From: Thermoproteota archaeon
Lineage (GTDB): Archaea > Korarchaeota > JAOZGF01 > JAOZFZ01
Direction of reading: 5' to 3'
Length of the DNA: 64,000 nucleotides
Assembly: GCA_027492035.1 (NCBI GenBank)
Contig: JAOZFT010000004.1
Location: forward strand, 128,001 to 192,000
The notes under the pieces were generated by a model. The model did not search any database and had not been told where the DNA came from. It saw nothing but the letters and a program-made list of their open reading frames with translations. Positions 35,182-64,000 of the stretch are shown in pieces. The stretch's first letter is position 1; each line of letters begins with the position of its first letter. The position numbers and the translations under genes were made by a program.

Positions 35182-35187
35182 TCCTGA

Positions 35188-36335: not shown

Positions 36336-36875
36336 ATGGAAGGAGAAGAGTGGGAGTTGGAAACAAAAACTAAGAAAAGAATAAAGAATCAATATAATCT
36401 CTTAAATGATGCCCGAGTAAAATCAAAAAGGGGCTTCTACCTACTGAATGAGGAAGGAAACAAGGAAGAAATTAAAAAAGATGAAATTATTAATGTACCG
36501 GTTTGGCAAGCTGAATTCTTGATAAGGGAAAACCTTGCAGAACCCATATATGAGAAAATAAATAATGAAACCTTAATGAGGATTCTTTCACTTGAGCAAC
36601 TGAATACGTTTTCGTTGTATGAATTACCAAAAGATTTTTACCTTAACTGCCTACATACATTGGAACAATTAAAAAAGAGTAAGGATAAAGCAGCAAATGA
36701 CTTCCTGAACCGACTAGAAAACTTAATAACGCTTAGGTTACAGAAGATACTTAAGATGGCGGCTAAGAACTTAGAAAAAAGAAAAGAAAGGGAAAAGATG
36801 ACAGCTGAGGAAGAACTGCTGTATGATTGGGTAAGGAAATTAGTAAATGATTGGGTTAAATCATTAATAGTTTAA
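36336..36875 (+). CDS. GINS subunit (Gins23/Psf2-like)
   Basis: VPVWQAEFL, LYELPKDFY, RLQKILKMA, MTAEEELLY; immediately upstream of mcm. Confidence 0.75.
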   Translation: MEGEEWELETKTKKRIKNQYNLLNDARVKSKRGFYLLNEEGNKEEIKKDEIINVPVWQAEFLIRENLAEPIYEKINNETLMRILSLEQLNTFSLYELPKDFYLNCLHTLEQLKKSKDKAANDFLNRLENLITLRLQKILKMAAKNLEKRKEREKMTAEEELLYDWVRKLVNDWVKSLIV

Positions 36876-36892
36876 GTAACTTAGGGAGAGGT

Positions 36893-38974
36893 ATGGAATT
36901 GCAACAGCTAAAAATATCACAAGAAACTTTAATCAAGACATTCCAAGATTTTCTGCTTAGCTTTCAAAGTGGAGGCAGAAAAGGATATTATGAACAACTT
37001 AAAGGTTTACCTGAAACAGGAGGAATTTCGATAAACGTTAATTACAGCGATGTTTTAATGTACAACCCAGAAATAGCGAATACTTTATTAGAGAAACCAG
37101 AAAAAATAATTAAGTCAGCATCTGAAGCACTTAAAAGAACAATCTCCCAAATAGACCCTGAATATGCTAGATATAAGAAAAGATTTTACGTGAGGTTTCA
37201 TAATTTACCCTATAAATCAGCTATAAGAGATCTACGTGCAAGTCAGATAGGGAAACTAGTGGAAATAGAGGGAGTGGTAACGCAGGCCTCAGCAATTCAA
37301 GCCCAGATGATAACAGCAACATATGAATGTAGGAGTTGCTCCTCTATTTTTGAGGTTCCAATAGATGAAGATAACCCAAGTTTCCAAAAAAGTGTTTTAA
37401 TTTGCCCAAATTGTGGAAGAAAAGGCCTACACAAGCTACAGCTGGAAAACTGTACTTTCATGGACTGGCAAAGTATAAGGCTGCAGGAGGACCATGAAAA
37501 CCTTCCTCCAGGTAGGTTACCTCGATCAATATTATGTATTCTAAAGGAAGATTTAGCTGATAAAGTTAGGCCGGGGGACCATGTGCAACTTGTAGGTATA
37601 CTAAAACCTATAAGGTTAATCCGCAAAGGGGAAGTAAGTAAGCTAAATTATTCCATTTATTTAGAGGGAAACTATGTAAAAGCATTAGGTGAAGAAGTAG
37701 AGACTGAGGAATTAAGTGAAGAAGACATTGAAAAGATAAAATCTTTAGCAAAAGACCCAAATATAGCAGAAAGAATAGTAAACTCCATTTCTCCTTCGAT
37801 ATATGGCTTAAGCGAAGTTAAAAAAGCAATAACTTTACTGCTTTTTGGTGGAAACCCAAAACATTTAGAAGGAGGAGGAAAAATAAGAGGGGATCTAAAC
37901 ATATTGTTAGTAGGTGATCCTGGAACTGGCAAAAGCCAAATATTAAAAAATGTAGCGAGAGTAGCACCAAGAGGATTATACACTACGGGTAAAGGATCTA
38001 CAGCTGCAGGGTTAACGGCAGCTGTAGTTAAGGATTCATTGACAGGGAATTGGAGTCTGGAAGCAGGGGCTTTAGTTTTAGCTGATAAAGGAGTTGCATG
38101 TATAGATGAGTTTGATAAAATGAGCAACAATGACAGAGTTGCAATTCATGAGGCTATGGAACAACAAACTATTTCGATAGCAAAGGCAGGCATAGTTGCG
38201 ACTTTAAACGCTAGAACATCAATATTAGCGGCAGCCAATCCTGCTTGGGGCAGGTATGATGAAGATAGAAGCCCAGCTGAGAACATAAATTTGCCAGTTA
38301 CGATACTGTCAAGATTTGATTTGATATTTCTAATTAAAGATGCGCCTGAGGCTCCAAAGGATAAAAATGTAGCCGAATTCATCCTTAAACTTCACGCTGG
38401 CAGAGGGGAAAATAATCAAGACTTGATAGAGCCTGTTCTCCTGAAAAAGTATATCCTTTACGCAAGAAAAAACATAAAGCCCCGTTTGACAAGGCAAGCT
38501 TTAGGAAGAATAAAACAGTTTTATTTAAAATTAAGGAAGGAAAGCGAAGAAAAACAAGTGATTGCGATAACGCCTAGGCAATTAGAGGCAGTAATTAGAA
38601 TGAGTGAAGCAAGGGCGAAAATGGAACTTAGAAAACAAGTAAAAGAAACAGATGCTGAATTCGCAATCAATTTAATGGAAGAGTTCCTTAACCAAATAGG
38701 CTACGAAAGGAAAGAGGGTGCATACGATATAGATAGAGTAATCACAGGAGTGTCCTTCTCAAAAAGAAAAAGAATATTAGCCCTTGAATCTTTAATAAAG
38801 GAACTTTATGAAGACAATGGAAAAAGGCCTGTTGAAATATCAACCGTTATAGATACTTTTAAAGAGAAACATGGAATACAGGAGACATTAATAAGGGAAG
38901 ATCTTGCCAGACTAAAGAAGGAGGGAAGAGTACTCTTTCCAAAAGAGGGATATGTGATACCTCTCGGATCCTAA
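36893..38974 (+). CDS. mcm: Replicative helicase MCM
   Basis: Zn finger; GDPGTGKSQ; IDEFDKM; HEAMEQQ; LSRFDL; no intein. Confidence 0.97.
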   Translation: MELQQLKISQETLIKTFQDFLLSFQSGGRKGYYEQLKGLPETGGISINVNYSDVLMYNPEIANTLLEKPEKIIKSASEALKRTISQIDPEYARYKKRFYVRFHNLPYKSAIRDLRASQIGKLVEIEGVVTQASAIQAQMITATYECRSCSSIFEVPIDEDNPSFQKSVLICPNCGRKGLHKLQLENCTFMDWQSIRLQEDHENLPPGRLPRSILCILKEDLADKVRPGDHVQLVGILKPIRLIRKGEVSKLNYSIYLEGNYVKALGEEVETEELSEEDIEKIKSLAKDPNIAERIVNSISPSIYGLSEVKKAITLLLFGGNPKHLEGGGKIRGDLNILLVGDPGTGKSQILKNVARVAPRGLYTTGKGSTAAGLTAAVVKDSLTGNWSLEAGALVLADKGVACIDEFDKMSNNDRVAIHEAMEQQTISIAKAGIVATLNARTSILAAANPAWGRYDEDRSPAENINLPVTILSRFDLIFLIKDAPEAPKDKNVAEFILKLHAGRGENNQDLIEPVLLKKYILYARKNIKPRLTRQALGRIKQFYLKLRKESEEKQVIAITPRQLEAVIRMSEARAKMELRKQVKETDAEFAINLMEEFLNQIGYERKEGAYDIDRVITGVSFSKRKRILALESLIKELYEDNGKRPVEISTVIDTFKEKHGIQETLIREDLARLKKEGRVLFPKEGYVIPLGS

Positions 38975-38979
38975 GGTGT

Positions 38980-41553
38980 GTAAAGATAAAGGAACCTAAT
39001 CTCCCGGAAAAAGTTGCACAAGCAGCTGCGAAATTAGGCATAAGGGCCCTTTTCCCGCCTCAAATAAGAGCTATAAAGAAGGGAATTCTAAAGGGTAAAA
39101 ATTTCGTCATAGCTACACCTACAGCTAGTGGAAAAACATTTATAGCATTAGCTGCGATAATAACCAAGTTAAATAAACACAGTGATAAAGCTATTTATTT
39201 AGCACCTCTACGGAGTATAGCATCGGAAAAATACAGTGAATTCAAAGAATTATTTGATGAATTAGGGTTAAGGACGGCTATTTCCACCGGTGACTTCGAT
39301 CTTTCACCCGACTGGTTGAAAGGATATAACATAATTATTTCCACGAATGAAAAAATTGACTCAATCATTAGACACAACCCAAAGTGGTTACAAGACGTAA
39401 AGGTAGTTGTAGTGGATGAAGTGCACCTTATTGACAGTTTGAAACGTGGCCCAATAATCGAACTCTTAATCGCTAAACTAAGGAAGAAAATAGAAAACCC
39501 ACAAATTTTGTGCTTAAGTGCAACAATTAAAAATGTGAAAGAACTAGCGGAATGGATTAATGGAACATATATAAGCAGCAACTGGAGACCCGTAGAACTC
39601 AGGGAGGGAGTATTTTATGATTACAAAATCTATTGGAGCAATGGAACAAAAAACGTAAGGAAAATTAAGGGGGAGAAATACACAGACCTCTGTCTAGATA
39701 CATTAAAGGAGAAAGGGCAGGTACTTGTTTTTTTAAACACCAGAAAAAACGCAGAAAACACCGCAGAAAAAGTAAAGAACGCTATTTCCAACACTCTTAC
39801 TGAAGAAGAGAAAAAGGAACTTAAAAAAACAGCTAGAAGGATTATTTCAGAAGGAGAACAAACTAAACTTTCGAAAAAACTAGCTAACCTAATAATGAGT
39901 GGAGTTGCATATCATCACGCAGGTTTAAGGCATATTCATCGTGCAATAGTAGAGGAAGCATTCAGAAGTAATTTTCTAAAAGTTATTTGTGCAACCCCCA
40001 CCTTAGCTGCAGGAGTTAACCTCCCAGCTAGGAGGGTAATAATAGGGCAAATTCATAGATTTTCAAAGGGAAAAGGAAGTCAACCTATTTCTGTAATGGA
40101 GTACAAACAAATGTGTCTGCCGTATGACACGCTGATCTTAACAGAAGAAGGGGAGATAGAGATAGGGGAGATAGTTGAAAAGAGAACTCCAAAAAAAGTT
40201 GTCAGTTTAGATCTTGAAACCGGTAAAGTAACCTTGAGCAAGATATTATCCTTTTTTGAAAGGAAAACTAATTTTTTGGTTAAACTCTTTTTAACTACTG
40301 GCTTAAACCTAGAACTGACACCTAACCATCCATTGCTGGCAGTTAAAAACGGAAGGTACGGATGGTTACTTGCAAAAAGAATACGGAGAGGCGATGTTGT
40401 ATTTACGTTAGATAAAGGGCTAATGAGAAAGATAAAAGTGAAAAAGGTAAAAAGAATAAACTTAGATAGCCCGATCACTGTCTTCAATTTGAAAACAGAA
40501 AAGGAAACCTTTTTTGCGGAAAGAATTGTATTGCATAATTGTGGACGGGCAGGTAGACCAAAGTATGATGAAATAGGGGAGGCGGTTCTTATAGCAAACA
40601 CTGAAGAAAGAAAGGAAAAGTACTTAAAAAAGTACGTGAACTCGAAACCAGAAAAAATAAAATCGAAACTGGTTGATTCACCTGCCCTAAGAGCGCAGAT
40701 TCTGTCACTAATAACTTCTAATTTGGCATTCACTCCTGAAGATATGAGGGACATATTTAAGTTGACTTTTTATTACAGCCAAACTAAAGAGAAAAAGAAA
40801 ATAGAGAGAAAGATTAAAGAAACATTAGATTTCTTGTTACTTAACGGATTTATAAAGAAAACAGGGGACTTGCTTCATGCTACAAAGTTAGGAAAAAGGG
40901 TTTCTTTACTTTATTTAGATCCTCTTACAGCAATAATTTTACTTAAAGGAATGGAAAAACTAGAAAAGAAGAAAGTCACTCCTCTTTCATTACTAACACT
41001 GATCTGCCTCACTCCAGACATGGAAACACTAAGTTACCGTAAGGCATTCTATCACGAAATGAACAACTTACTTAAAGAAAGAGAGGAAGAACTACCCCTA
41101 GAAGTTTATTATACTTCAACCTATTACTTGCTCGATCAAGACTGGCTGCAAGCAATATGGACTGCAAATATGCTTGAGAAATGGATAAATGAAGAAAATG
41201 AAGACACTTTAAACTTTAAGTACGGAGTTGGCCCAGGAGACATAAGAAGAGTAAATGAAAGTGCTGATTGGCTCCTCTACTCCATGCAGGAATTAGCCAA
41301 AACGTTTAAACATGAGAATTACATTCCTTTAATTGAAGAACTAAGGCAAAGAATAAAATATGGAGTGAAGAAGGAACTAATTGAATTAACTACCATAAAG
41401 GGTATTGGAAGGGTAAGAGCCAGAGTCCTCTACAATAAGGGATACAAACGTTTAGAAGATTTGAGTAAGGCGTCTATAAATGAACTTGCTAAACTTCCAG
41501 CTATAGGCGAAGCCTTAGCAAAAAGTATTAAAGAACAACTAAATGAGGAATAG
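38980..41553 (+). CDS. hel308: Hel308/Ski2-like SF2 helicase containing an intein; non-canonical start
   Basis: The frame is open upstream of the track start: VKIKEPNLPEKV...LFPPQ (Q motif)...TPTASGKT...APLRSIASEK. Also DEVH, LSAT, HHAGL, GRAGRP and a C-terminal HhH. Start uncertain (GTA 38980 or ATA 38986). Confidence 0.9.
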   Translation, partial: VKIKEPNLPEKVAQAAAKLGIRALFPPQIRAIKKGILKGKNFVIATPTASGKTFIALAAIITKLNKHSDKAIYLAPLRSIASEKYSEFKELFDELGLRTAISTGDFDLSPDWLKGYNIIISTNEKIDSIIRHNPKWLQDVKVVVVDEVHLIDSLKRGPIIELLIAKLRKKIENPQILCLSATIKNVKELAEWINGTYISSNWRPVELREGVFYDYKIYWSNGTKNVRKIKGEKYTDLCLDTLKEKGQVLVFLNTRKNAENTAEKVKNAISNTLTEEEKKELKKTARRIISEGEQTKLSKKLANLIMSGVAYHHAGLRHIHRAIVEEAFRSNFLKVICATPTLAAGVNLPARRVIIGQIHRFSKGKGSQPISVMEYKQMCLPYDTLILTEEGEIEIGEIVEKRTPKKVVSLDLETGKVTLSKILSFFERKTNFLVKLFLTTGLNLELTPNHPLLAVKNGRYGWLLAKRIRRGDVVFTLDKGLMRKIKVKKVKRINLDSPITVFNLKTEKETFFAERIVLHNCGRAGRPKYDEIGEAVLIANTEERKEKYLKKYVNSKPEKIKSKLVDSPALRAQILSLITSNLAFTPEDMRDIFKLTFYYSQTKEKKKIERKIKETLDFLLLNGFIKKTGDLLHATKLGKRVSLLYLDPLTAIILLKGMEKLEKKKVTPLSLLTLICLTPDMETLSYRKAFYHEMNNLLKEREEELPLEVYYTSTYYLLDQDWLQAIWTANMLEKWINEENEDTLNFKYGVGPGDIRRVNESADWLLYSMQELAKTFKHENYIPLIEELRQRIKYGVKKELIELTTIKGIGRVRARVLYNKGYKRLEDLSKASINELAKLPAIGEALAKSIKEQLNEE
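40114..40539 (+). mobile_element. Mini-intein (142 aa, no homing endonuclease) in Hel308 motif VI
   Basis: EYKQM|CLPYDTLI...LELTPNHPL (block B TxxH)...VFNL...IVLHN|CGRAGRP; splicing restores QMCGRAGR. Confidence 0.93.
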
Positions 41554-52221: not shown

Positions 52222-53274
52222 ATGTTGGAAATAGATGGTTCATTTCTTGAAGGTGGAGGTCAGATATTAAGGACAGCGATAGCTCTTTCAGCTGTGTTGA
52301 ACAAAGATGTAAAGGTTGTGAATATAAGGTCGAAAAGAAAGAAACCTGGCCTTAAACCTCAGCATTTCGCTTCAGTAAACATGGTTGCTAAGTTAACTGG
52401 AGCAGAAGTTGAGGGGTTAAGAATAGGTTCCAAAGAAATAGTGTTTAAACCTAAGACAATAAAGGGCGGGAGTTTCATAATGGACATAGGCACAGCTGGC
52501 AGTGTTACTTTAGTTCTGCAAACTCTTCTTCCTTTCATAATTTATGCACCCACAAAACTTAATTTAGTCATAAGGGGAGGAACAAATGTGGCTTTCTCCC
52601 CTCAAGTAGATTACTTCATAAACGTGTTTACCCGTTGGGCCAAAAGTATAGGAGTGGAAATGGAGCTAGAGTTAGTTAAAAGAGGAACATACCCAAAGGG
52701 GGGAGGAGTGGTTAAAGTTTCTGTTAAACCATTAAAAACAATTCAGGGATTCTCTTTCCTGGAGAGAGGGGAAGTGAAAAAAATAAAAGGGATTTCTTGG
52801 TGTGAAAACTTACCGTTACACGTATGCAAGAGACAAAAAGAATCAGCTGAAAAATTACTTTACCAAGCCGGATATGAAGATGTAGAAATTGCAGTTCAAG
52901 CTGGAAAGATGAGTAGAAGCCCAGGAAGCGGGGTAGTGGTGTGGGCTGAAACAACAAACAAAGCCTTCATTGGGGCTGATTCCCTTGGAGAAAGAGGTAA
53001 ACCTGCAGAGAAAGTTGGTAGAGAAGCAGCTAATAAACTTTTGACAGAGTTAACATTGAAAGCACCCCTAGATAAACATATGGGAGACCAAGTTATTCCC
53101 TTTATGGGTTTAGCTCAAGGAACATCTCAAGTTAAAGTTACAGAGATAACTCGCCACACTAAAACAAATATTTTCGTTACAGAAAAAATTTTGAAAGTGA
53201 ATTTTGAGGTGGAAGATGATAAACCAGGGTTGATAAGGGTTAAGGGCATGGGTGCACAAAACAAATTTATTTAG
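52222..53274 (+). CDS. rtcA: RNA 3'-terminal phosphate cyclase
   Basis: MLEIDGSFLEGGGQILRT, KPGLKPQH, YPKGGG, DKHMGDQ; true start ATG 52222 rather than 52072. Confidence 0.95.
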   Translation: MLEIDGSFLEGGGQILRTAIALSAVLNKDVKVVNIRSKRKKPGLKPQHFASVNMVAKLTGAEVEGLRIGSKEIVFKPKTIKGGSFIMDIGTAGSVTLVLQTLLPFIIYAPTKLNLVIRGGTNVAFSPQVDYFINVFTRWAKSIGVEMELELVKRGTYPKGGGVVKVSVKPLKTIQGFSFLERGEVKKIKGISWCENLPLHVCKRQKESAEKLLYQAGYEDVEIAVQAGKMSRSPGSGVVVWAETTNKAFIGADSLGERGKPAEKVGREAANKLLTELTLKAPLDKHMGDQVIPFMGLAQGTSQVKVTEITRHTKTNIFVTEKILKVNFEVEDDKPGLIRVKGMGAQNKFI

Positions 53275-55460
53275 ATTTTTCTGCGCCCAATAAATACCAA
53301 CAAAGCTAGAATCAACACATCCAACCCTACTAAAGCTGCAATAACCAAATCTCTACTTTCTAGACCGAGTAGAGGAAATATGGTAAAAGTTGGTGGAACA
53401 AGAATTTTTACAGTTGCAGAATCCAAGACTAACCCCTGATTGCTTAATTGCGCATTTAATGCTTGATAACCTTCTTTTTCAGGAATAACGGAGAATAGGT
53501 AAGTCGCTTGTTCCCCTGGCTCTATTTCAATATCCCTTTGGTGAGGGTTAATTGAGAAATTAACTGATTCTAATGTCACAGTAAAAGAGGATTTAGTTTC
53601 ACCAGTATTTCTTACTGTTAAGTTAATTATGCCTGGGCTATTTAGTTTGAGGGTTTGGGGGGAATTTATTTTGACAAATTCAGCTTTCGCTTCATAAACT
53701 AAAATTTTTGCTTCTTTCCTGGTCTGTTGACCTAAATAACTAAGTACTATGGACAATTTTTTTTCACCTCCTCCTTTTGGTCTAATGTGGAAAGATAGAG
53801 CTGTTGCTTCATCAGGTTTCAAAGTTGCTTTTTTTTGGTTAGGGGTTATTTCAAAATCAGGTGATGACAATGAAACGTTAAACTCGGTTTCGATGCCTCC
53901 ATCGTTAGTTACTACCACGGTTACTTTTCCTTCTGAACCCAATGACATTTCGGAGGGTAGTTCTGAAATAGTGAAGTAGCCGTGAGCAGAAAGTACATCG
54001 ATCTCCACTGTTTGCGTTGTGGTTTTATCGCCATAAGTTAGGGTAAATTGCACCGTTTTATGTCCTTCTTTTAAAGGTGTTAACTTAAGGTAAATGGTTT
54101 TTTTGCCTTTAGGTGGGATAGAGTAGGTTTCGGTGCTTATAGAACTATTGAAATCTGCAGCTGAAACTTTTAGTAGAAAATTGCCGGATGTTTCACTTGG
54201 ATTTTCAATTTCAATGCCGATTTGGTAACTTTTCCCTTTAATCATTTCTTTGGGGTAATCTATGACGTTCAAGTTTCCTTGGAGAGAATATTCTACTTCC
54301 AAAGTGATTTGTAAGTAATTTACATAACTGTTACCTAATTCATCGTAATAACTAACCCTGATCTGTATCAAGTGGTAGCCTGTTTCAACAGCTTTTAAAT
54401 GAAATGCAACTGACTCTTTGTCTCCTGGATCTAAATTAACTATTTTTGCTATAGGGTAAGGTGCTTCAAAACCTGGTGCAGCAGTAATTTCTAAGTAGAG
54501 ATTTTTAGCAGTAGATTCTCCATCGTTGGTTAGAGTTACATAGAGATTAAAGTCTTCACCGTATTTCACAGTTGAAGGGAAACTATACCAAAGACTAATT
54601 GGCCCCGGCTTAAGCGATTTCACATTAACAGTAACTGTTTCTGTATCTATCAATCTCGAGTAGCTGTACAGCTTAAAGGTGATGGGTATACTGCCCGTCA
54701 CAGTGGGTGTGACGGAAAAACTAAGTGTTGTATCTGAGTATGGAGGTAAAGAAATTGTTTGGGAGGGAGTAGATGTCGTGAACCCGTTTCCTGAAAAATA
54801 CACTGTGAACACTTTTGAAAAATACATTAAATTCCTTACATTAACTTCAACTGTGTATCCTTTGTTAACCCACATTGGAGATGGAGCATTAATGATCGTT
54901 AATTCACCTTCTTCCAAGTAATAGTTATGATAATAAAATTGTAATTCTTGGTATCCTATTAAGTGAGAGCTTGAATCCTTTAAAGTGACATTCCAGAGAT
55001 AGTAACCTTCAGAGTCGTGGCTTCCAGGGATGAAGGGGCCTATTCTGTAGGAGCCTGAGTTTGGTAAACTAATTTCCGATATGAGGGAGTAGGTGGAGGG
55101 AGGGTAAGGGTAGTTTTCTAGTATAGAGAGATAAGTGTTTGAGTGGTTAGTGGCCACGAACAACCAAACTTCATCTCCTTCATAGAAGGAGGTAGTAATT
55201 TGTCCATAACTATTTTCTAACCAGCAAGTTAAGTTAGAGTTATAATGAAAAGGACTTACATAAATTACCTGAAGGTGAGGGGAATAAAACTTACTGTTAG
55301 CGTCGGGTCTCGTTGAAATACCGTAAGCTTGTGGAACAAAAAGGGAGGTGCCGGAAAAAAGGAAAACAAAAATTAAAGATGTAACGGCGGTTTTAATTGC
55401 AGAACGTTCCTTAAAATGTTTTTCGTCCATATTCCTCCCTCCCACGAAAAAAGCCTTCAT
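53271..55460 (-). CDS. Secreted/surface protein with tandem Ig-like (CARDB/COG1361-like) domains and C-terminal TM anchor
   Basis: Signal peptide (LIFVFLFSG...QAYG); about five repeats of V.V.N.G...F...L.P.E...F.V.P; C-terminal TM followed by GRRKI. Confidence 0.75.
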   Translation of the reverse strand: MKAFFVGGRNMDEKHFKERSAIKTAVTSLIFVFLFSGTSLFVPQAYGISTRPDANSKFYSPHLQVIYVSPFHYNSNLTCWLENSYGQITTSFYEGDEVWLFVATNHSNTYLSILENYPYPPSTYSLISEISLPNSGSYRIGPFIPGSHDSEGYYLWNVTLKDSSSHLIGYQELQFYYHNYYLEEGELTIINAPSPMWVNKGYTVEVNVRNLMYFSKVFTVYFSGNGFTTSTPSQTISLPPYSDTTLSFSVTPTVTGSIPITFKLYSYSRLIDTETVTVNVKSLKPGPISLWYSFPSTVKYGEDFNLYVTLTNDGESTAKNLYLEITAAPGFEAPYPIAKIVNLDPGDKESVAFHLKAVETGYHLIQIRVSYYDELGNSYVNYLQITLEVEYSLQGNLNVIDYPKEMIKGKSYQIGIEIENPSETSGNFLLKVSAADFNSSISTETYSIPPKGKKTIYLKLTPLKEGHKTVQFTLTYGDKTTTQTVEIDVLSAHGYFTISELPSEMSLGSEGKVTVVVTNDGGIETEFNVSLSSPDFEITPNQKKATLKPDEATALSFHIRPKGGGEKKLSIVLSYLGQQTRKEAKILVYEAKAEFVKINSPQTLKLNSPGIINLTVRNTGETKSSFTVTLESVNFSINPHQRDIEIEPGEQATYLFSVIPEKEGYQALNAQLSNQGLVLDSATVKILVPPTFTIFPLLGLESRDLVIAALVGLDVLILALLVFIGRRKI

Positions 55461-55607
55461 GAAAATTTTTCACTTACATTAGTTTTTTATTTTAAAGCCT
55501 CAGAAAGAATATTAAATTTAATTCTTTTCCCCGGGAAAAAAATAAATGTTTTTTTAAGTTAAAAAGTTTGAAATGCTTTTTTGTAGATAGTTTCTTTTTA
55601 ATTGTAG

Positions 55608-56897
55608 GTGTTGTTATTGAGCGTGAAGGATGCTTTTGTTTATGGAGAAGATTATGGCACATCAAAGTTTAAGTTTGGACCCGTTTTCCTCCATGAAAAA
55701 CCTGAAATGATAGATAATAGAGGATACTTCCCTTCACCTTCACAACTTTTACCTCATATGATGGAGGAAGAAGTAAAAGAAGTTGTTGTGGGAGAAGAGG
55801 TTCAGAAGTATCTGGAAACAATAGAAGATTTATCTACTAAGTTGATTTATCCAATGAGGAAGGGAGTAGTTAGAAAAGACGATAAAAAAGCTTGGAAAGT
55901 CATAAAAGAGATAACTAAATATGGATTGTTGAAGTTCTTCCCAAAAAGAATGAAAGAATTCAACGGATTCTATGTTGTCTCCTCGCTTGCCGCTCAATCA
56001 CCACGTTACATGTACGAAAGAATTTTTGAAGTGCATAAGGAAATAAATGAAGAAGAGAATGTACCCCTTGTAAATTCCATAACAATAATTCCTCAACCAT
56101 TGGCTGTAGCTATTTCACATAAGGCAGTTACTTGCACCGTAATAGAGAGTGGTCACGGGAACACCCAAATCACACCAGTTAGTAGAGGATTAATAAGAGG
56201 TGCAATAATAGCTTTGAACAGAGGCGGAAGCGATGCAAATGCAATTACTGCCCAAATCCTTAAAGATATTGGATATAGTGACTTAGCTAGGGAAGAAAAA
56301 TTTGTTACTTTATTTAAAGAGGAAGTAGGCTTACTTCCACTGGATTTGAATATGGCAATAGATAAAGCTAAAAGGAATCCTGAAAGATTTGGGGTTATTT
56401 TTAAAGTTCCAGGGACATCAATAGAGGTTGAACTGAAAGAGGATTCATGGCAGCGTTTCTTGATAGGGGAGTATATATTTAATCCTCAGCATGAAATTTT
56501 TGAATCATATTACCAAAGGGGGTTCACTAAGCCTAGGGATACTTATATAGCTGGTGAGGAAGTTATTCCTGGTTTAGCCTCTCTTTCTGAAGTAATAATA
56601 AAATCCGTTGAGAAATGCCCGACAGAGATTCAGCCTATGTTATACCGGGACATAATTCTTTCAGGTGGAAATTTCCTTTGGAGAGTGCCCCTAAGTATGG
56701 TAGATGTTGCCACGAATTCTCAAACCAAGATAAAGTTGATGTTAGAGGAAAAGGGAATTCCTGATGTAATAGTACGGGCTGCTGAAAATCCTCAATATAG
56801 TGTTTGGAGAGGGGCTATAGTTTATGGGTTATCCTTCCCAGAGGAGGTGGAGTGGAACTGGGAAAAAATGGAAGGCTGGCTTAAGTTAATAAACTAG
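55608..56897 (+). CDS. Crenactin (archaeal actin)
   Basis: YGEDYGTSKFKFGP (phosphate 1), YPMRKGVV, IPQPLAVA, IESGHGNTQITP (phosphate 2), IILSGGNF, PQYSVWRG; 429 aa. Confidence 0.92.
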   Translation: MLLLSVKDAFVYGEDYGTSKFKFGPVFLHEKPEMIDNRGYFPSPSQLLPHMMEEEVKEVVVGEEVQKYLETIEDLSTKLIYPMRKGVVRKDDKKAWKVIKEITKYGLLKFFPKRMKEFNGFYVVSSLAAQSPRYMYERIFEVHKEINEEENVPLVNSITIIPQPLAVAISHKAVTCTVIESGHGNTQITPVSRGLIRGAIIALNRGGSDANAITAQILKDIGYSDLAREEKFVTLFKEEVGLLPLDLNMAIDKAKRNPERFGVIFKVPGTSIEVELKEDSWQRFLIGEYIFNPQHEIFESYYQRGFTKPRDTYIAGEEVIPGLASLSEVIIKSVEKCPTEIQPMLYRDIILSGGNFLWRVPLSMVDVATNSQTKIKLMLEEKGIPDVIVRAAENPQYSVWRGAIVYGLSFPEEVEWNWEKMEGWLKLIN

Positions 56898-59332
56898 TTC
56901 TCTAATTCACTGACTGAACTGAAACCATTTATTTTCTTAATATGGAGGAGTTTACAGTTGACCCCTGCCTTTTTAGAGATTTTTAAAATTTTCCCTTTCA
57001 GAATATTATCTTGTGTTGCAACTAAAACTTGATGGAATACATTGCTTTTTAAAAGGGTTGAAAGGAAGACTTCCTTACATAGTTCATCTGTACCTGGTAA
57101 GGGGTCATCAAAAGCTATGAAACCTAAATTGTGGGGGCTTAAGGTGTATGAAGCAAGCAGGATAGACAGTGTTACTATTATTTTTTGACCGTCACTTAGT
57201 TTCAACGTAAATGGAACTACTTCTTTATCCCGAGTTTTCACAACTAAAAACCTATAGATGCTTCTCTTGCCCCTTTTGTCCTCTATTTCTTCTATTTTAA
57301 TAAGGATTTGAGAGAGGTCATTGTATGGGTAAATATGGTTGAAGAAACTATTTGCTGTTGTATTCAAGTTAGATACCACCTTCTTCCTCAATTCTGTTTG
57401 AATTGCGCGATAGCTTTCTCTGATAGAAATTAATTCGGTAAGAAATTCTGACAACCTTTTTTCTTTGTCTCTTAATTCTTTAAGTTTACCTTTGATTTTA
57501 ACGAGATGAGGTATGTTCTTTTGTAGCGTTAATATTTGTTTTCCTATGTTCCTTCTTTCATTTTTCAAAGAATTCAGTTGTTGAGTATTGAGGGAAAGCT
57601 CTTCAACTGTTTCCAAGTACTCTTCTTCATTAAAATTAAGCATTTCTATTCTTTTTTCAACTTCGCTCAAATTTGTTTCTATCTCAGAAAGTTTCTCCTT
57701 TAGCATTTCTATTTCCTTTATCTCCAGAGAGATAGTGTCTAACTTCCTTATTTTTTGTAGGCATATGTTTCTCGATTTTATTTTTTCGTTTATTTCATCC
57801 AGTTTCCTTTTTTCGTTTTCTACCCTAATTTCTAGCAATTTTTTGTCGTTAGTCAGTTTCTCCAGTTCTTGATTTACTTTTTTGAGGTTTAGAATGTCTA
57901 GACTTAATTTTTCAAGTCGATCTTTGGCGTCTGTAAGTTCAGTGTGGAGTTCATTGAGCTCAGAAAACCTAGCAGTTATTTTCATTATTTTCTTTTCATT
58001 TTCCCTTATTTTAGTGTTTAGTTTATCTATTTCTGACTTAGTTACTTTATGGCCGCAAACTAGGCATTCAGTTTCATTTGTTTTCTGTAACTCGTTTGTT
58101 AGAGTAGATAGTATCTTATTTACTGCCTTAACTTCTTTTTCTTTTACTTCCAGAGTTGAAAGTTCTTGCTCTATTTTCTTAATTCTTTTCTCTATTTCGG
58201 GGAGGGAACCATACTTCATTGATAATTTTTCAGCTTCCTTCCTTAGAGATTCAGCTATTACCCTTTTCTTGGTTAAGTTATCAATTTCTCCTCTCTTCTT
58301 TTCAGCTTCTAAAGTTAATTCTTTTATGTTCCTTTCCAGTAACATCTTTTCCTCTTCAAATTCCCTTATTTTTTTATGTATTACTTCCAGTTGAAAGGGC
58401 CCCGAAGAAAATGCGTTTTCATTTATTGGTGTTAAATTGATTTCATGAAACCCAGAACAAAGTTCTCTCGTTTCTTTTATCAAGTTATCTCTTTCAGAAA
58501 CTAAGTTTTCAATGTTTTTCCCACCCAAGTGTAGCAGAATTTCTTCTTTCCTGACTTCAAGGTTGGTTTTTTCCCTTATTAGACTAAAGTACTCTCCTTT
58601 ATCTTTTTCTATTTCTTCTTTCTTTTGCAGCAAAGTATTGCAAATTTTTTGCAGTTCCCTTTCTTCAGCCGCCAGCTCTTCTTCCTTTTTTAAGAGGTTT
58701 TTTAATGTTTCTTTCTTTCCGGGTAAAGATTTTACTTCTGGATAGGTAGTAACCAATTCGTTTATTTTTTGTTTAAGCTTTTCAAGTTCGTTCTTCACCG
58801 TTTTTACTGGAAAAGACTTGTAAAGGTTTTCTAATTCTGAAATCCCCATTAAGCGATCCATGATAATTGTCCGCTCAGAATCAGAACCGAAAATTAACGT
58901 TTGCAGCTCATGGTTCCTCACCAGCACATGTTTTGAGAATTCATCTGGAGTTATTTGAACTATGGCGCCTATCTTTTTCTCCACGTTTTTCTTGATTTCT
59001 TTACCTTTAAGAATTAATTTTGTCCTTAATGGGTTCCTTAATTTTTTTGTTCTAAGGATTTCAAGAACTGTTCCCTCCTCGCTAAAAAGTTCAAGTTCTA
59101 CATCCATTTCCGTAGAGCCACTGAGCATCAGGTCATCCACCTTCATTTCTCTTAGTTTCCTGGTTTCGTATGTATCCCCGAAAAGGGCAAATTCAATAGC
59201 GTCAAAAATAGTTGTTTTTCCTGCACCTGTTCTACCGTACAATAGAATTAAGCCAGGGCTGAGATTAATTACAGTTTTATTTTTAAAAGATTTAAAGTTC
59301 CCGATTGCTATTTTCTTTATGGTGTAAGCCAT
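56894..59332 (-). CDS. Rad50/SMC-like ATPase with zinc hook (arcadin-4-like)
   Basis: IGNFKSF; Walker A GRTGAGKT; long coiled coils; central CLVCG hook; LSDGQ signature; IAFDDP Walker B. Confidence 0.85.
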   Translation of the reverse strand: MAYTIKKIAIGNFKSFKNKTVINLSPGLILLYGRTGAGKTTIFDAIEFALFGDTYETRKLREMKVDDLMLSGSTEMDVELELFSEEGTVLEILRTKKLRNPLRTKLILKGKEIKKNVEKKIGAIVQITPDEFSKHVLVRNHELQTLIFGSDSERTIIMDRLMGISELENLYKSFPVKTVKNELEKLKQKINELVTTYPEVKSLPGKKETLKNLLKKEEELAAEERELQKICNTLLQKKEEIEKDKGEYFSLIREKTNLEVRKEEILLHLGGKNIENLVSERDNLIKETRELCSGFHEINLTPINENAFSSGPFQLEVIHKKIREFEEEKMLLERNIKELTLEAEKKRGEIDNLTKKRVIAESLRKEAEKLSMKYGSLPEIEKRIKKIEQELSTLEVKEKEVKAVNKILSTLTNELQKTNETECLVCGHKVTKSEIDKLNTKIRENEKKIMKITARFSELNELHTELTDAKDRLEKLSLDILNLKKVNQELEKLTNDKKLLEIRVENEKRKLDEINEKIKSRNICLQKIRKLDTISLEIKEIEMLKEKLSEIETNLSEVEKRIEMLNFNEEEYLETVEELSLNTQQLNSLKNERRNIGKQILTLQKNIPHLVKIKGKLKELRDKEKRLSEFLTELISIRESYRAIQTELRKKVVSNLNTTANSFFNHIYPYNDLSQILIKIEEIEDKRGKRSIYRFLVVKTRDKEVVPFTLKLSDGQKIIVTLSILLASYTLSPHNLGFIAFDDPLPGTDELCKEVFLSTLLKSNVFHQVLVATQDNILKGKILKISKKAGVNCKLLHIKKINGFSSVSELEN

Positions 59333-59340
59333 GTAAACAC

Positions 59341-59502
59341 CTATTTTGAAAGCTTCGTTAATATTTCCTTTATTTCTTCCTCGACTCCACTAACTCCCTT
59401 ACGTAAGTAGATCTCGAAAAGTTTAAAAGCCAAGTCACGTGTATGCTTATTCTCCTTAAAATATTCGTTTAATAATTTTTTTACCTCCTCTTTTACACTC
59501 AT
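59341..59502 (-). CDS. 53-aa helical protein upstream of the SMC-like gene (possible arcadin-3-like partner)
   Basis: MSVKEEVKKLLNEYFKENKHTRDLAFKLFEIYLRKGVSGVEEEIKEILTKLSK; its stop overlaps the AGGTG RBS of the SMC gene 8 nt downstream. Confidence 0.7.
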   Translation of the reverse strand: MSVKEEVKKLLNEYFKENKHTRDLAFKLFEIYLRKGVSGVEEEIKEILTKLSK

Positions 59503-59546
59503 AACTTTCTTACCTGCAGAAAATTGTTTTTTGGTTTAAGTGAGAA

Positions 59547-60086
59547 GTGATGACTGAGAGAGGATTGTTTGTGGGAAGATTTCAACCTTTTCATTTAGGC
59601 CACAGTTTTGCCATTAAATATATTTTAGAGAAAGTTAATAATTTAATAGTTTTGGTGGGTAGCGCCCAGTTTAGCTATACATGGAGAAATCCTTTCACTG
59701 CTGGAGAAAGAATTGAAATGATTTACAGGTCTTTAGATAAACATGATTTAGAGAAAGTGTTAATTATTCCGGTTGACGATACCTATGAGAGAAATTATAT
59801 CTGGGTTAGACATGTAGAAAACTACACGCCTAAATTTAGTGTTGTGTTTTCAAACGATTTTTTAACAAGAAGACTTTTCTTGGACGCGGGGTATAGTGTT
59901 TTAAATGTACCTTTTTACAACAGGAAAGAAGTTTCAGGGACAAGGATAAGGCAACTTATGGCTGAGGAGAAAGAATGGAAAAATTTAGTTCCTAATGGAA
60001 GTAGAGAAGTTATTGAGGAAATAGGGGGAGAAAAGAGAGTAAGAATGATTTTTCAATCACGTAGAATTGAGAATTTTTCCTATTAA
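59547..60086 (+). CDS. nadM: Nicotinamide-nucleotide adenylyltransferase
   Basis: GLFVGRFQPFHLGH, NPFTAGERIEMI, SGTRIR. Confidence 0.95.
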   Translation: MMTERGLFVGRFQPFHLGHSFAIKYILEKVNNLIVLVGSAQFSYTWRNPFTAGERIEMIYRSLDKHDLEKVLIIPVDDTYERNYIWVRHVENYTPKFSVVFSNDFLTRRLFLDAGYSVLNVPFYNRKEVSGTRIRQLMAEEKEWKNLVPNGSREVIEEIGGEKRVRMIFQSRRIENFSY

Positions 60087-60253: not shown

Positions 60254-60532
60254 TTGCTTTTGAAATGTCGAAAATGTAAAAAAATTTTTAAAGAGGAAGA
60301 ACTGAAACTAGAGGGGAATCAATATATTTGCCCTAATTGTGGCTATAATTTATTCAGTGTAGTGAGGCTGCTTGATACAGTTAAAAGGTTGCAAGGTACT
60401 GTGGAGGAGAGAGAACCCTTAGAAGAAGCATTCAAAGAATTCGAATTTGAAAACATTAAAGAAGATAAAGAATTAAGTGGTTCAAAGAGGGAAAAAGCTA
60501 AGGCTAGGGAAGAAGAACTTCCTTTACTTTAA
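60254..60532 (+). CDS. Zn-ribbon protein with acidic C-terminus
   Basis: CRKC...CPNCG motifs. Confidence 0.65.
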   Translation: MLLKCRKCKKIFKEEELKLEGNQYICPNCGYNLFSVVRLLDTVKRLQGTVEEREPLEEAFKEFEFENIKEDKELSGSKREKAKAREEELPLL

Positions 60533-60537
60533 AAACT

Positions 60538-60819
60538 TTAATCCAGAAGCCCTGCTAAACCTTCTGTTTCCTTTTCTCTTTCTCTTTCGATTTTTTCTAT
60601 AACCAATTTAGCTGTTTCTTCATCAACACTCTTTAACTTAGGCATTTCTTTCTCTATTTCCTTCATTTTTTCTTCTGAAGCATCAACTAAAATAAAATAC
60701 CCTATTTCTTCAAAATCATTTTTCAAGTTGGTAGCAGGAATGAAGTCAAAGCCTATTCTTTTTAGTAAATCATTCCTTTCCAGATATTCTAAGTCTTTAA
60801 CAAAATAAATTTTTCTCAT
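60538..60819 (-). CDS. Hypothetical protein resembling a conserved small archaeal family
   Basis: GYFILVDASEE...IEKIEREREKETEGLAGLLD pattern; purine-rich RBS. Confidence 0.65.
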   Translation of the reverse strand: MRKIYFVKDLEYLERNDLLKRIGFDFIPATNLKNDFEEIGYFILVDASEEKMKEIEKEMPKLKSVDEETAKLVIEKIEREREKETEGLAGLLD

Positions 60820-61013: not shown

Positions 61014-61355
61014 GTGGTTGAAGTGAGGAGGCGAAGACAGAGAACAACTGTGAGCTTTTTTTTAAGTGAAGCACTTTATGGAGTCGCTTTAAGCTTAATT
61101 ACGATAGCGACATCCTTTTTGATTTCTGAGTTCGGTGTATGGGTTTTTACTCAATGGTTATTTACAAGAGATGCTTTACTTTACATTTTCTTAATTTTGA
61201 ACTTTACAATTTCTGGGACGATAATTTTCGTCCCATTCTATAACAAAAGATTTGTACAAGCTATTGTTGCAGTACTATTTACTACATTTTTTTGGTTTTT
61301 GCTCTTTCAGTTTTACGGCTTTCACCCTGTGGACACCTTGCTAGGTTTAATATAG
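61014..61355 (+). CDS. Small membrane protein (about 3 TM helices)
   Basis: Basic N-terminus then hydrophobic helices; ends 9 nt before tRNA-Glu. Confidence 0.7.
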   Translation: MVEVRRRRQRTTVSFFLSEALYGVALSLITIATSFLISEFGVWVFTQWLFTRDALLYIFLILNFTISGTIIFVPFYNKRFVQAIVAVLFTTFFWFLLFQFYGFHPVDTLLGLI

Positions 61356-61364
61356 TCCCAGAAA

Positions 61365-61439
61365 GCCCCGGTGGTGTAGCCCGGTTAAGCATAATGGCCT
61401 CTCGAGCCATTGACGCGGGTTCAAATCCCGCCCGGGGCA
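61365..61439 (+). tRNA. tRNA-Glu(CTC), intronless
   Basis: GCCCCGGTGGTGTAGCCCGGTTAAGCATAATGGCCTCTCGAGCCATTGACGCGGGTTCAAATCCCGCCCGGGGCA. Confidence 0.95.
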
Positions 61440-61518: not shown

Positions 61519-64000
61519 TTAGAGCTTTAAGGCTTGTTCAAGAAACTCTAGTATTTCTTTCCGTTGAGAAGCAAAGAATAGCACTGAATTATTAGTTTTG
61601 AACGGAATTTTGAGCAAGTTTTCTTTATATGGTGGCTGCGTTATCGAAAGATCCCTTAGTAATACCAGGATTTTTATCCTTGTTCCATCGTCAATTATCT
61701 CTTTTAGATTACTTTCACTTAGAGAAGCGTTGAGGGAAGTTGGTGCAATGAATTCAACCTCTACCTTCCCATCGATCAAGAGTCCGTTTCCCTTTAATTC
61801 AATTGGTACAGCGTTTTCAAAACAGAAATCAAAAAGGTAATCTGTGACCATTTGTTTCAACAACTTTCCCTTATTGAGCAAAGTGGCAACTTCCATTGTT
61901 GATCCGTCAACGCAGACTTTCCATATTTTAACGGCGCTATCGGTTTCAATTAATTGTGTTATTATGTTTAGGGGGAGGCCTATAATATCGCGTAACTCTT
62001 TTAAAGTAAAGTATTTATATCTTTGGATTATTTGGAGGATTTCTTTTTTCACTGCCTGCCTAAAACCATGTTTTCCTTTATTTTTCAACAAGTTTAAGTA
62101 TTTTCTCAGTTCTAAATTGGAGACGGGTTCCCAATTTTTATTTCCTATAGTTTTTATTAGGAAGGGCTCATTGTAAGTAGGAGAAAAAAGAACCGCTTCG
62201 AACTTACCTAATTTAGGAAATATTTCCTTTTGAGTTTCATCTAAACCCATATTGTTAGCCATTATTGCTTTGTCTTTGTTGTCTACTGTCCTGAAACAAA
62301 TTTTGGTAGAAGTGTTTCTAATTACGTAACTACTTAGTATTGTGGGGGAAGGAGAAATGAATAACATCCCCACCCCTACTTTACGCAAATAATCCACTGC
62401 CTTCAATACTGCACTAGATTCATTACCGTTCTCAGGAACAATTACCTGCGCCTCATCCATTACAACAAGAAGTTTGAAGTTGTTCGAGATTTCTTCTGGT
62501 TTGTAATAGTGTTCAAAAACCTTTTTAAGAATAATAGCGGCGATTACTTGTTTCGAATTTCTATTAACTAATTTAGAGAAATCGAAACTGACAAGTCCGT
62601 ATTCGTCAAGGTAGTTAAAGAGATCTATCTCCCTTTCTGTATTGAGCACTTCACCTAGTTCTCCCTTCACTAAGAGATGCAGTCTCCTTATTAAGGCGTT
62701 TTTAATTTGTACAGAGGCACTATCCTCTGGCTCATATTCTAAAAGGAGATTGAGAAGTTTTCTAAATGAAACTTCATGTTTATTTTCCCTATAAAGTTTT
62801 TCAAGTAGTATTCTTAAAAATTCAGAGGTGGGTTCCGATAACTTGAGCTCTTCCGAAAGGAAGGAATGAACCCAATTGATGTGTTCATTTAAGTTATTTC
62901 CCTTGAAATTTAGGATGTTCAGGGTTAAGGGAACTTCTTCATCATTTACAACAAAGATAAAACCTAAATTTTTCATTATGACTGACCTGTACTCGCCGCT
63001 TTGATCAAGCACGATCACTTTGATTTTTAATTCGTTAAAAAGATTGTTTATGATGTTTTTAGCCAACGTGCTTTTACCGAACCCTGTACAACCTGTAATT
63101 AAGCACCTGGCTAGTAAGTCATGAATTGATAAATAAATTGGAAAGTGCCCCCTTCCTTTATAAAGAGAATAACCTATCGATATACTATTTACGGGTTTTT
63201 TGGGTGTAGGAAGAGGAAAAACATCTTCTTCCATTATTTTTATCCCTGAGGAGCTAGGAGGTAAAGGAAATAGAAGAGATGCTTCAGGAAGGGTAAGGTT
63301 CAGTAACTTTTTTCTTGGTACACGAAAAAAAAGTTCTTTCCAGGCCAGTAAAAGCTCTTTACCTTTGAGTTCTTCGAGTTTGATGCCAGGCAGCATAGCT
63401 TCAAACACGCTCCTAACCACTTTAAGCTTTTTGTCCATTTCAATTAACTGTCTTGAAAGAGTTTGCTCCTCACAAATGTTTTGTAATACTATAAAGAGAG
63501 ATGTTTCAACGAACCCTTTTGATAGACCTGTTTTTAGTCTAATAGCTTCGGTTAATTCTTTGTCTTCAGGTGGAAGCTGCGAAGTTAGATCCTCCTTTTT
63601 AGATATGGCTATATGATTTTCTAAATTCTTTAACTCGCGTAGCGCCCTCCCTTTTAGTTCTTTTGCGTTAGTGACAGGTCTTGCAAATAGGGAATAGGTA
63701 CAAGGTATTTCTAGCTCTTGAATCCTTGAGAGAGCATCTTGCAATCTTGAGAAGAAATTTATGAAGTTCATTACCTTTTGAGTCAAGTATGCACCATTTT
63801 TTTCTTCTAAAAGAGGAAACTTTGGTCTTTCAACCATATTTAGTATAGAATAAATCACAATTTTATTGTTTATACGCATTAAAAGGAAAGTGTTTAATGT
63901 TCTGATGTTAAGATTCAAATTTTCGTTGTTTTTAGAATACTTTAGTAAAATATTTCTTTCGGTGGTTAAGGTTATTACTTTCCCTTTCTTAAAATAAAGA
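61519..64000 (-). CDS. HerA/VirB4-like (DUF87) ATPase, 5' end probably outside window
   Basis: CLITGCTGFGKST Walker A; IVLDQSGEY; VVMDEAQ Walker B; LRKVGVG; RNTSTKICFR. The frame stays open from 63918 to the window edge. Confidence 0.85.
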   Translation of the reverse strand, partial: LYFKKGKVITLTTERNILLKYSKNNENLNLNIRTLNTFLLMRINNKIVIYSILNMVERPKFPLLEEKNGAYLTQKVMNFINFFSRLQDALSRIQELEIPCTYSLFARPVTNAKELKGRALRELKNLENHIAISKKEDLTSQLPPEDKELTEAIRLKTGLSKGFVETSLFIVLQNICEEQTLSRQLIEMDKKLKVVRSVFEAMLPGIKLEELKGKELLLAWKELFFRVPRKKLLNLTLPEASLLFPLPPSSSGIKIMEEDVFPLPTPKKPVNSISIGYSLYKGRGHFPIYLSIHDLLARCLITGCTGFGKSTLAKNIINNLFNELKIKVIVLDQSGEYRSVIMKNLGFIFVVNDEEVPLTLNILNFKGNNLNEHINWVHSFLSEELKLSEPTSEFLRILLEKLYRENKHEVSFRKLLNLLLEYEPEDSASVQIKNALIRRLHLLVKGELGEVLNTEREIDLFNYLDEYGLVSFDFSKLVNRNSKQVIAAIILKKVFEHYYKPEEISNNFKLLVVMDEAQVIVPENGNESSAVLKAVDYLRKVGVGMLFISPSPTILSSYVIRNTSTKICFRTVDNKDKAIMANNMGLDETQKEIFPKLGKFEAVLFSPTYNEPFLIKTIGNKNWEPVSNLELRKYLNLLKNKGKHGFRQAVKKEILQIIQRYKYFTLKELRDIIGLPLNIITQLIETDSAVKIWKVCVDGSTMEVATLLNKGKLLKQMVTDYLFDFCFENAVPIELKGNGLLIDGKVEVEFIAPTSLNASLSESNLKEIIDDGTRIKILVLLRDLSITQPPYKENLLKIPFKTNNSVLFFASQRKEILEFLEQALKL

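Follow-up and report, generated by a model that had tools for sequence, protein, structure and literature searches.

The locus considered here consists of four adjoining genes in a 64,000-nt stretch of an archaeal contig (Thermoproteota archaeon, GenBank assembly GCA_027492035.1, contig JAOZFT010000004.1, positions 128,001 to 192,000), the whole of which was analyzed and is referred to as the window. Its closest described relatives are the Arcade clusters of the Thermoproteales, in which the actin-like protein crenactin is encoded together with arcadins 1-4 (Ettema et al., 2011, as cited in PMC5173319). Crenactin forms filaments, and arcadin-2 is described as a depolymerizer whose tail peptide was shown to bind the crenactin groove; among the other partners, arcadin-3 is a small protein and arcadin-4 resembles Rad50 (PMC5173319). 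In published trees the arcadin-4 clade sits nested within Rad50, with the ASRP family placed separately (PMC9389158). Passages of a 2024 review call the function of arcadin-4 “completely unknown” and already raise a role in the chromosome as an open question (PMC11946384), and mixed complements of crenactin and arcadins have already been published for other lineages of the TACK archaea (Thaumarchaeota, Aigarchaeota, Crenarchaeota and Korarchaeota) (Culexarchaeia preprint).

What the window contains is the Arcade system as already known, newly arranged and reduced, which corresponds neither to the described layout nor to a new kind of system. It is best read, with a probability of about 0.6, as a reduced and rearranged Arcade cluster in which an inverted arcadin-3/arcadin-4 operon converges on the crenactin gene, and in which the arcadin-3 and arcadin-4 proteins would form a bridging complex alongside crenactin. 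The open reading frames (ORFs) and intergenic segments concerned are the following.

53271-55460, minus strand: gene for a membrane-anchored surface protein with CARDB/immunoglobulin (Ig) repeats, 729 aa, a neighbor of the module only
55461-55607, no strand: divergent AT-rich spacer in which TATA-like runs point in both directions, from the sequence and a motif scan
55608-56897, plus strand: gene for crenactin, 429 aa, with a GTG start; the real start is possibly at 55623
56894-56897, no strand: shared CTAG, the overlapping stops of the convergent crenactin and arcadin-4 genes
56894-59332, minus strand: gene for an arcadin-4-like, Rad50-derived ATP-binding cassette (ABC) ATPase with zinc hook and coiled coil, 812 aa
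59341-59502, minus strand: gene for an arcadin-3-like small protein, 53 aa, a predicted three-helix bundle; first gene of the arcadin-3/arcadin-4 operon
59503-59546, no strand: 44-bp spacer between the arcadin-3 gene and a divergent gene for nicotinamide mononucleotide (NMN) adenylyltransferase (59547-60086)

The stop codons of the crenactin and arcadin-4 genes overlap by 4 bp, the palindrome CTAG being common to both. A homolog or family match was found for every one of the four ORFs (for the 53-aa ORF, homologs in 12 other loci), and on this evidence none of them is a product of chance. A first-pass annotation of the window had placed the four ORFs at these positions with a tail-to-tail overlap of 4 bp, which the shared CTAG stops confirm. 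Its divergent region of about 150 bp between the crenactin gene and that of the 729-aa protein measures 147 bp (55461-55607); the membrane anchoring and Ig repeats that it ascribed to the 729-aa protein are borne out by CARDB/Ig matches and a C-terminal anchor; and the 812-aa protein that it called a zinc-hook protein resembling those for structural maintenance of chromosomes (SMC) does possess a Walker A motif, a CLVC hook and a C-terminal ABC head.

The 429-aa protein is, by homology, crenactin. The NCBIfam model NF053560 matches it with 588.7 bits (E 6e-177) across aa 7-424, equivalent to model positions 2-421 of 422, and the next NCBIfam model, MamK, reaches 27 bits. Among proteins of solved structure, the crenactin of P. 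calidifontis (PDB 4cj7, 5ly3 and 5mw1) is matched at E 2.3e-108 with 365.9 bits, and Arp3/actin at 37 bits; eukaryotic actins and Arps reach ~1e-8. In an alignment of 18 crenactins (A1), in which the window protein is itself one row, it has the invariant residue at all 97 such columns, including D15-G17-T18, E180-G182-H183-G184-N185-T186 and S352-G353-G354, which we take to be the phosphate and adenosine motifs of the nucleotide-binding site of the actin fold. A Shine-Dalgarno-like AGGTG lies near the annotated start (55606-55610), and a public version of the protein (P0005) begins later, at 55623. With a profile of 18 crenactins, one genome per species was scanned, yielding 228 relatives, the best 80 of which were analyzed with flanks of up to 10 kb. 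Counts given below are over 81 sources, that is, these 80 loci (none of them from Pyrobaculum) and the window, with profiles built here applied to all ORFs.

The 812-aa protein is assigned to arcadin-4 and not to canonical Rad50, because its score with the NCBIfam model for arcadin-4, Rkd4 (285.5 bits; aa 3-756, model positions 1-744 of 747), is over 160 bits higher than with any Rad50 model, and because the order is reversed in a Rad50-like control protein, P0126 (Rad50 234, Rkd4 160). The best Rad50 model, Rad50_Sulf, scores 121 bits, ASRP 77.5 (aa 483-729) and SMC 70.6, so the affinity is with arcadin-4 and not with Rad50 or with ASRP/ClsN. A profile of the arcadin-4 family likewise joins the protein with 13 other arcadin-4 genes adjoining crenactin. 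It is scarcely credible, by comparison, that the protein is a canonical Rad50 serving double-strand-break repair and that the 53-aa ORF is spurious. Its best PDB sequence matches are indeed Rad50 heads (3aux, E 1.7e-43), and the best fold match of its model is the Rad50 chain 7zr1_D (E 1.3e-22), but no Mre11 adjoins the gene, the motifs SDGQ/ATQD/DD stand where P0126 has SGGE, ITHED and a Walker B DE, and the 53-aa ORF belongs to a conserved family with a confident predicted fold. The diagnostic segments of arcadin-4 lie as follows.

59210-59236, minus strand: Walker A motif GRTGAGKTT, aa 33-41 of arcadin-4
58055-58066, minus strand: zinc-hook CxxC (CLVC, aa 423-426) at the coiled-coil apex, from the A5 alignment and the model
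57185-57199, minus strand: ABC signature LSDGQ, aa 712-716, the arcadin-4 variant
57101-57118, minus strand: Walker B motif IAFDDP, aa 739-744, with Asp at the catalytic Glu site of the family and of Rad50
57008-57025, minus strand: H-loop position LVATQD, with Gln for the His of Rad50

The AlphaFold2 (AF2) model of arcadin-4, with a mean predicted local distance difference test (pLDDT) score of 79.3, runs through head, coiled coil, hook, coiled coil and head, the hook being a beta hairpin (aa 419-431) between helices at aa 312-418 and 432-562. Both hook cysteines, C423 and C426, are invariant in a 13-row alignment of arcadin-4 (A5). One row, L067, does not reach the C-terminal head, and motif counts there use the other 12: the signature reads [LM]SDGQ in 9 of them (MSEGQ in L070, LSSGQ in L001 and LSTGQ in L002), and the H-loop position holds Gln in 11, with Phe in L002 (LTFN). 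The Rad50 consensus set against these, an SGGE/Q signature and an H-loop His, is in part presumed and was compared with P0126. A search with the whole protein by indexed words was dominated by coiled-coil words and is uninformative on distribution; 2 of its 7998 scored candidates passed, namely P0126 and a 98% twin of the window protein, P0125.

At Walker B the window protein departs from its own family, with DD here only and DE in the 11 other members covering the motif. A read error can be set aside because P0125 also has DD, its 18 differences all falling in the coiled coil. The intact catalytic set typical of the family is accordingly not what the window protein carries: Walker A is present, and Walker B reads FDDP. 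The Walker B Glu is the catalytic base in ABC ATPases, and for that reason the change to Asp suggests slow ATP turnover. It places normal turnover in question, not membership in the family.

Directly upstream of arcadin-4 is the 53-aa ORF, which homology and position identify as a real gene for a divergent arcadin-3. Its match to the NCBIfam arcadin-3 model, Rkd3 (NF053562), is near full length but weak, at E 0.0027 and 17.7 bits for a cut-off of 90. A phmmer search with the ORF alone finds six ORFs in the corresponding position upstream of arcadin-4, with a best E of 2.8e-07, and the iterated family has 13 members, each (13 of 13 loci) encoded just upstream of arcadin-4. When the profile of these members is run against 1.84 billion representatives, 68 proteins are returned at E<=0.001, 66 of which are 46-79 aa long, and Rkd3 is matched by 29 of the 66 small representatives at E<=0.01 (best 8.1e-12). 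The kinship with arcadin-3 for which the first-pass annotation proposed a search is in this way found in the weak Rkd3 match taken together with positional and profile homology. A sequence identical to the ORF is present in a public protein library, and the AF2 model of the protein is a three-helix bundle with a pLDDT of 96.4. A fold search of the PDB with this model gave no analog (three matches, best E 9), and an Atlas search gave no usable match.

Arcadin-3 and arcadin-4 appear to be coupled in expression and perhaps in assembly. The arcadin-3 gene ends 8 nt before the arcadin-4 ATG, which is preceded at 6 nt by AGGTG. With longest-ORF starts, all 13 loci show either an overlap of the two genes or a gap that does not exceed 8 nt. 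By this spacing the pair is an operon. Co-folding of the 53-aa protein with the SMC-like protein gives a score of 0.58 (0.58, 0.58 and 0.59 in three runs), with the best of three controls at 0.00; contacts agree to 100% among the runs, and the pLDDT of the partners is at least 81. In calibration, of 157 solved complexes 116 attain the mark applied, as do 2 of 215 mismatched pairs, and scores of 0.60 or less account for only 18 of the 157 solved complexes and for both passing mismatches; the co-folds used alignments of their own, and these counts apply to them only roughly. Binding of arcadin-3 to arcadin-4 is weakly supported by these predictions.

Comparison across relatives places the locus within the range of Arcade arrangements. 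Arcadin-2 stands beside crenactin in 53 of the 81 sources, arcadin-4 in 14, and arcadin-3 just upstream of arcadin-4 in 13. Eleven Thermofilaceae-type loci (L005 to L073) are co-directional, in the order crenactin, arcadin-2, arcadin-3, arcadin-4. The convergent form, with crenactin facing arcadin-4 and with arcadin-3 but without arcadin-2, is confined to the window and its two closest relatives, L001 and L002, the L002 contig stopping before arcadin-3. Their crenactins are 68% (L001) and 60% (L002) identical to that of the window, and the junction between the crenactin and arcadin-4 genes is tight in both, with gaps of 4 nt in L001 and 3 nt in L002. The L001 arcadin-4, which contains a masked run of 263 N, retains the hook and is 34% identical to that of the window over 564 aa (E 4e-79), and a 69-aa ORF upstream of it is 31% identical to the 53-aa ORF. 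The order in L001 (RtcA, crenactin, arcadin-4, arcadin-3, NMN adenylyltransferase) is that of the window minus the surface-protein gene, with NMN adenylyltransferase adjoining arcadin-3 in both.

Trees of the two larger proteins agree with this picture. The window, L001 and L002 form one clade in the crenactin tree, a quick tree with support from the Shimodaira-Hasegawa-like approximate likelihood ratio test (SH-aLRT) only, at 83, with 97 for the window and L001, and one clade in the arcadin-4 tree, with support of 99. Sister to them in the crenactin tree are 20 loci from vent-derived metagenome-assembled genomes of Thermoproteota, in which none of the three arcadins was found beside crenactin within flanks of up to 10 kb. 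Arcadin-4 adjoins crenactin in two distinct clades of the crenactin tree in spite of the inversion. The convergent layout therefore differs from that of the 11 co-directional loci and is kept in the two closest relatives, and, as the first-pass annotation had suspected, the arrangement is not the described standard Arcade layout, arcadin-3/4 being inverted and arcadin-2 missing.

Arcadin-2 adjoining crenactin, the feature by which a complete Arcade cluster is recognized, is what the window lacks. No match to Rkd2, the NCBIfam model for arcadin-2, was obtained among its 70 ORFs, and a profile of 53 arcadin-2 members also found nothing in the window. The C-terminal tail LPSF.KDNPW..IL of arcadin-2 is seen by eye in 51 of those 53, the other two being cut by contig ends. 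A corresponding expression, [DENGQ]N[PE]W..., which was not run on positives, found no instance in six-frame translations of the window, the L001 and L002 loci, and 21 others that lack arcadin-2. The absence of an adjacent arcadin-2 noted in the first-pass annotation hence extends to the full 64 kb by model, profile and tail motif. As for arcadin-1, PDB searches with two ORFs of the window (at 61014-61355 and 60538-60819) yielded no arcadin-1, their matches being no better than chance, and searches with profiles of three families neighboring crenactin gave no arcadin-1 match; five other crenactin-neighbor families have no member in the window, L001 or L002.

Several neighbors of crenactin in the relatives were considered for these roles. 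Families upstream of crenactin in Thermofilaceae-type loci were tried as arcadin-1 and rejected, one being cyclophilin-like (PDB 2nnz, E 1.8e-11; Pfam Cyclophil_like) and the other having no identity. A gene of ~210 aa directly before crenactin in the sister clade was ruled out as a hidden arcadin-2, having no NPW motif; it contains a PCHR motif, which we take to be the mark of an MGMT-type methyltransferase. The arcadin-4 profile caught two further proteins in Caldarchaeales (L056 3-1802 and L049 3-1805, plus strand), ~8 kb upstream of crenactin, which are a different, hookless SMC-like ATPase and not arcadin-4.

Other neighbor families in these loci may be recorded separately. A Cys-rich protein of ~92 aa (CPED...C..CP.F) follows arcadin-2 in L003 (11882-12148, plus strand), with counterparts in 15-20 loci; in Bathyarchaeia/Culexarchaeia-type loci it occupies the position that arcadin-3 has in the Thermofilaceae type, and the window has no counterpart. 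A ~180-aa family directly before crenactin in L003 (9264-9989, plus strand), with counterparts in 13 loci of Bathyarchaeia, Brockarchaeota and Culexarchaeia, found no match in the PDB and may be another crenactin companion. In L005 (9596-9838, plus strand) and five other Thermofilaceae-type loci, a highly charged helical protein of ~76 aa is encoded on the same strand just upstream of crenactin.

On the other side of crenactin, the 729-aa protein is by its features a typical archaeal CARDB/Ig-repeat protein. It matches Pfam CARDB (1.3e-16) and other Ig-like families, and has a hydrophobic N-terminal segment (aa 24-43), 7 N-x-S/T sequons and a C-terminal membrane anchor (aa ~703-725) followed by only 5 residues; the proteins that resemble it in the Atlas are CARDB clusters from archaea (score 0.91). 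The 147-bp spacer that separates its gene from crenactin has 21% G+C and probably holds two back-to-back promoters. It may be about 190 bp long, because P0005 and the public version of the Ig protein (P0194, which starts 10 residues in) both begin later. A scan for bacterial-type promoters and terminators, uninformative for an archaeon, gave 15 promoter sites where 18 are expected and 1 terminator where 6 are expected.

The first-pass annotation suggested that this spacer may tie crenactin, the SMC-like gene and the surface protein into one co-regulated module coupling the envelope, cytoskeleton and chromosome. Apart from the shared AT-rich spacer with TATA-like runs on both strands, which is what commends the idea, the comparisons leave it very improbable. 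The surface protein has no homolog in any of the 80 crenactin loci, and the only relative found in a search of public proteins is a 99% twin. In L001, crenactin follows RtcA after a 309-bp gap, and in L002 its divergent neighbor is an NYN-domain gene, with no surface-protein gene in either. Since both relatives lack that gene and 20 loci of the wider clade have RtcA upstream of crenactin, the surface-protein gene was, as far as gene order can tell, inserted in the window lineage, and the shared spacer is a lineage-specific accident. With 5 residues after its anchor, the protein would also have almost no cytoplasmic part with which to touch a filament. Co-regulation of crenactin and the surface protein is not supported by the spacer, and this part of the earlier proposal falls away.

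If the locus is indeed a reduced and rearranged Arcade cluster, a mechanism can be outlined. Crenactin would assemble, in an ATP-dependent manner, into actin-like double filaments, as its Pyrobaculum counterpart has been shown to do. Arcadin-4 would be a Rad50-derived rod, pairing through its zinc hook and its ABC heads, and the three-helix arcadin-3, produced from the same transcript, would be its stoichiometric partner. Together the pair could form a long bridging or tethering complex alongside crenactin, acting in cell shape, division or the handling of the nucleoid. Conceivably, slow ATP turnover resulting from the Walker B substitution would make it a static cross-linker rather than a cycling machine. 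The surface protein would have no part in this mechanism.

An alternative with a lesser but appreciable chance of being correct is that arcadin-3/4 is a DNA-directed, SMC-like machine, concerned with arm alignment, condensation or repair, that works independently of crenactin and whose adjacency to it is inherited synteny. The descent of arcadin-4 from Rad50 (PMC9389158), its retention of Walker A, the zinc hook and an SMC/Rad50 fold, and its transcription convergently to crenactin are all in keeping with such a role. Moreover, according to a passage of the 2024 review, Thermofilum adornatum has no clear homologs of SMC complexes and yet its chromosome halves are juxtaposed, arcadin-4 being its only SMC-like protein (PMC11946384). 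Pointing the other way, adjacency to crenactin survives the inversion, across 14 loci and two crenactin clades; no Mre11-like nuclease was found among the 70 window ORFs; and the arcadin-4 family has lost the H-loop His, with the window protein having also lost the Walker B Glu. Immunostaining in Pyrobaculum, as summarized in the Culexarchaeia preprint, assigns arcadin-1, -3 and -4 an auxiliary part in division and shape.

Several observations weigh against the bridging complex and the Arcade assignment preferred here. All three core proteins fall under the curated equivalog cut-offs of their models: crenactin by 41 bits (cut-off 630), arcadin-3 with its 17.7 of 90, and arcadin-4 with 285.5 of 860, although the Rkd4 model is narrow, the arcadin-4 of a Thermofilaceae locus (L043) itself scoring only 349.1. 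The fold of arcadin-3 has no PDB analog, and its partner role therefore has no precedent on which to lean; the co-fold gave weak support and returned no interface. Adjacency alone ties arcadin-3/4 to crenactin, and their convergent orientation means that they are not co-transcribed with it. In the DNA examined, 67 of the 81 crenactin loci have no arcadin-4, so crenactin does not depend on a nearby arcadin-4, a point that also favors the crenactin-independent alternative. The slow-hydrolysis reading of the Asp-for-Glu change draws on what is generally known of ABC ATPases. A gene for arcadin-2 may be present in another part of the genome, and no arcadin-1 model came up in the NCBIfam and Pfam scans, no search with an arcadin-1 sequence having been made.

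A more speculative extension, and a rather unlikely one, can also be put forward. Arcadin-3 and arcadin-4 might be a self-contained, two-subunit, SMC-like complex, a hook ATPase of Rad50 descent with the 53-aa three-helix protein as its adaptor, that, with crenactin filaments, aligns or positions chromosomes in archaea where canonical SMC is lacking. The window would then represent the minimal working set (crenactin, arcadin-3 and arcadin-4, without arcadin-2), and the Walker B substitution of Asp for Glu would lock the ATPase towards the engaged state. Whichever view is taken, arcadin-3 and arcadin-4 are essentially uncharacterized, and the locus and its relatives present them as a fixed two-gene unit that is separable from arcadin-2 and stays beside crenactin through an inversion. 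The locus offers a compact set of three proteins in which a partnership of actin and SMC-like proteins could be studied. Its parts are known ones, rearranged in a lineage that has not been cultured; it serves comparative work and will not surprise specialists.

The remainder of the window, which has a G+C content of 36%, is ordinary archaeal core genome, as judged from family scans of its 70 ORFs, and includes genes for pyruvate:ferredoxin oxidoreductase, Cdc48, FEN1, RadA, aEF-2, Orc1, RFC, GINS, MCM, a histone and a proteasome subunit. Replication genes are grouped at 32492-38974 (Orc1/Cdc6, the large and small subunits of RFC, Gins23 and MCM), and an origin may be nearby. A gene for a Hel308-type helicase (39316-41553, plus strand) is split by an intein, with the NCBIfam N-terminal intein region at aa 267-341 and helicase halves on both sides. 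A 94-aa ORF (10106-10390, plus strand) matches only the N-terminal part of ABC-transporter ATPases and is possibly a gene fragment, and at 30147-32038 (plus strand) the gene for a DUF373 membrane protein (341 aa) has its start overlapped by that for a DUF7121 coiled-coil protein (289 aa). Beyond NMN adenylyltransferase lie an OapC-like zinc-ribbon ORF (60254-60532) and, reaching to the window end (61519-63918, minus strand), a gene for a large CedD/HerA-like ATPase (NCBIfam CedD, 146 bits; Pfam DUF87). Rfam identifies four tRNA genes, at 11285-11409 (minus strand), 18368-18454 (plus), 22502-22592 (minus) and 61365-61439 (plus), three of which are 87-125 nt long and probably contain introns; ARAGORN reports two of the four.

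Set against described systems, the locus shares individual features with several. Members of the ASRP family (ClsN/coalescin and Sph) are, like arcadin-4, archaeal SMC-superfamily ATPases with coiled coils, but their model reaches only 77.5 bits with the window protein, and a published tree separates ASRP from Rad50 and arcadin-4 (PMC9389158). Loci with arcadin-2 only, which make up 42 of the 81 sources (Bathyarchaeia, Culexarchaeia, Brockarchaeota and Caldarchaeales), have an orthologous crenactin of 52-60% identity; they keep arcadin-2 with its LPSF.KDNPW tail and have no arcadin-3/4 nearby, which is the reverse of the situation in the window. Archaeal Rad50 has the same architecture of ABC head, antiparallel coiled coil and CxxC zinc hook as the window arcadin-4, whereas Rad50, which accompanies Mre11, carries SGGE/Q and an H-loop His in place of SDGQ and Gln, and the window gene has as its neighbor not Mre11 but a 53-aa three-helix partner.

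The closest correspondence remains that with the Arcade cluster of the Thermoproteales, represented in this comparison by the 11 Thermofilaceae-type loci. Both contain crenactin, arcadin-3 and arcadin-4, with arcadin-3 directly upstream of arcadin-4 and arcadin-4 adjoining crenactin. The window differs in that the arcadin-3/4 operon is inverted, its stop overlapping that of crenactin; in that arcadin-2, which in the 11 Thermofilaceae-type loci lies between crenactin and arcadin-3, does not occur within the 64 kb; and in a Walker B DD where the other arcadin-4 proteins covering the motif have DE.

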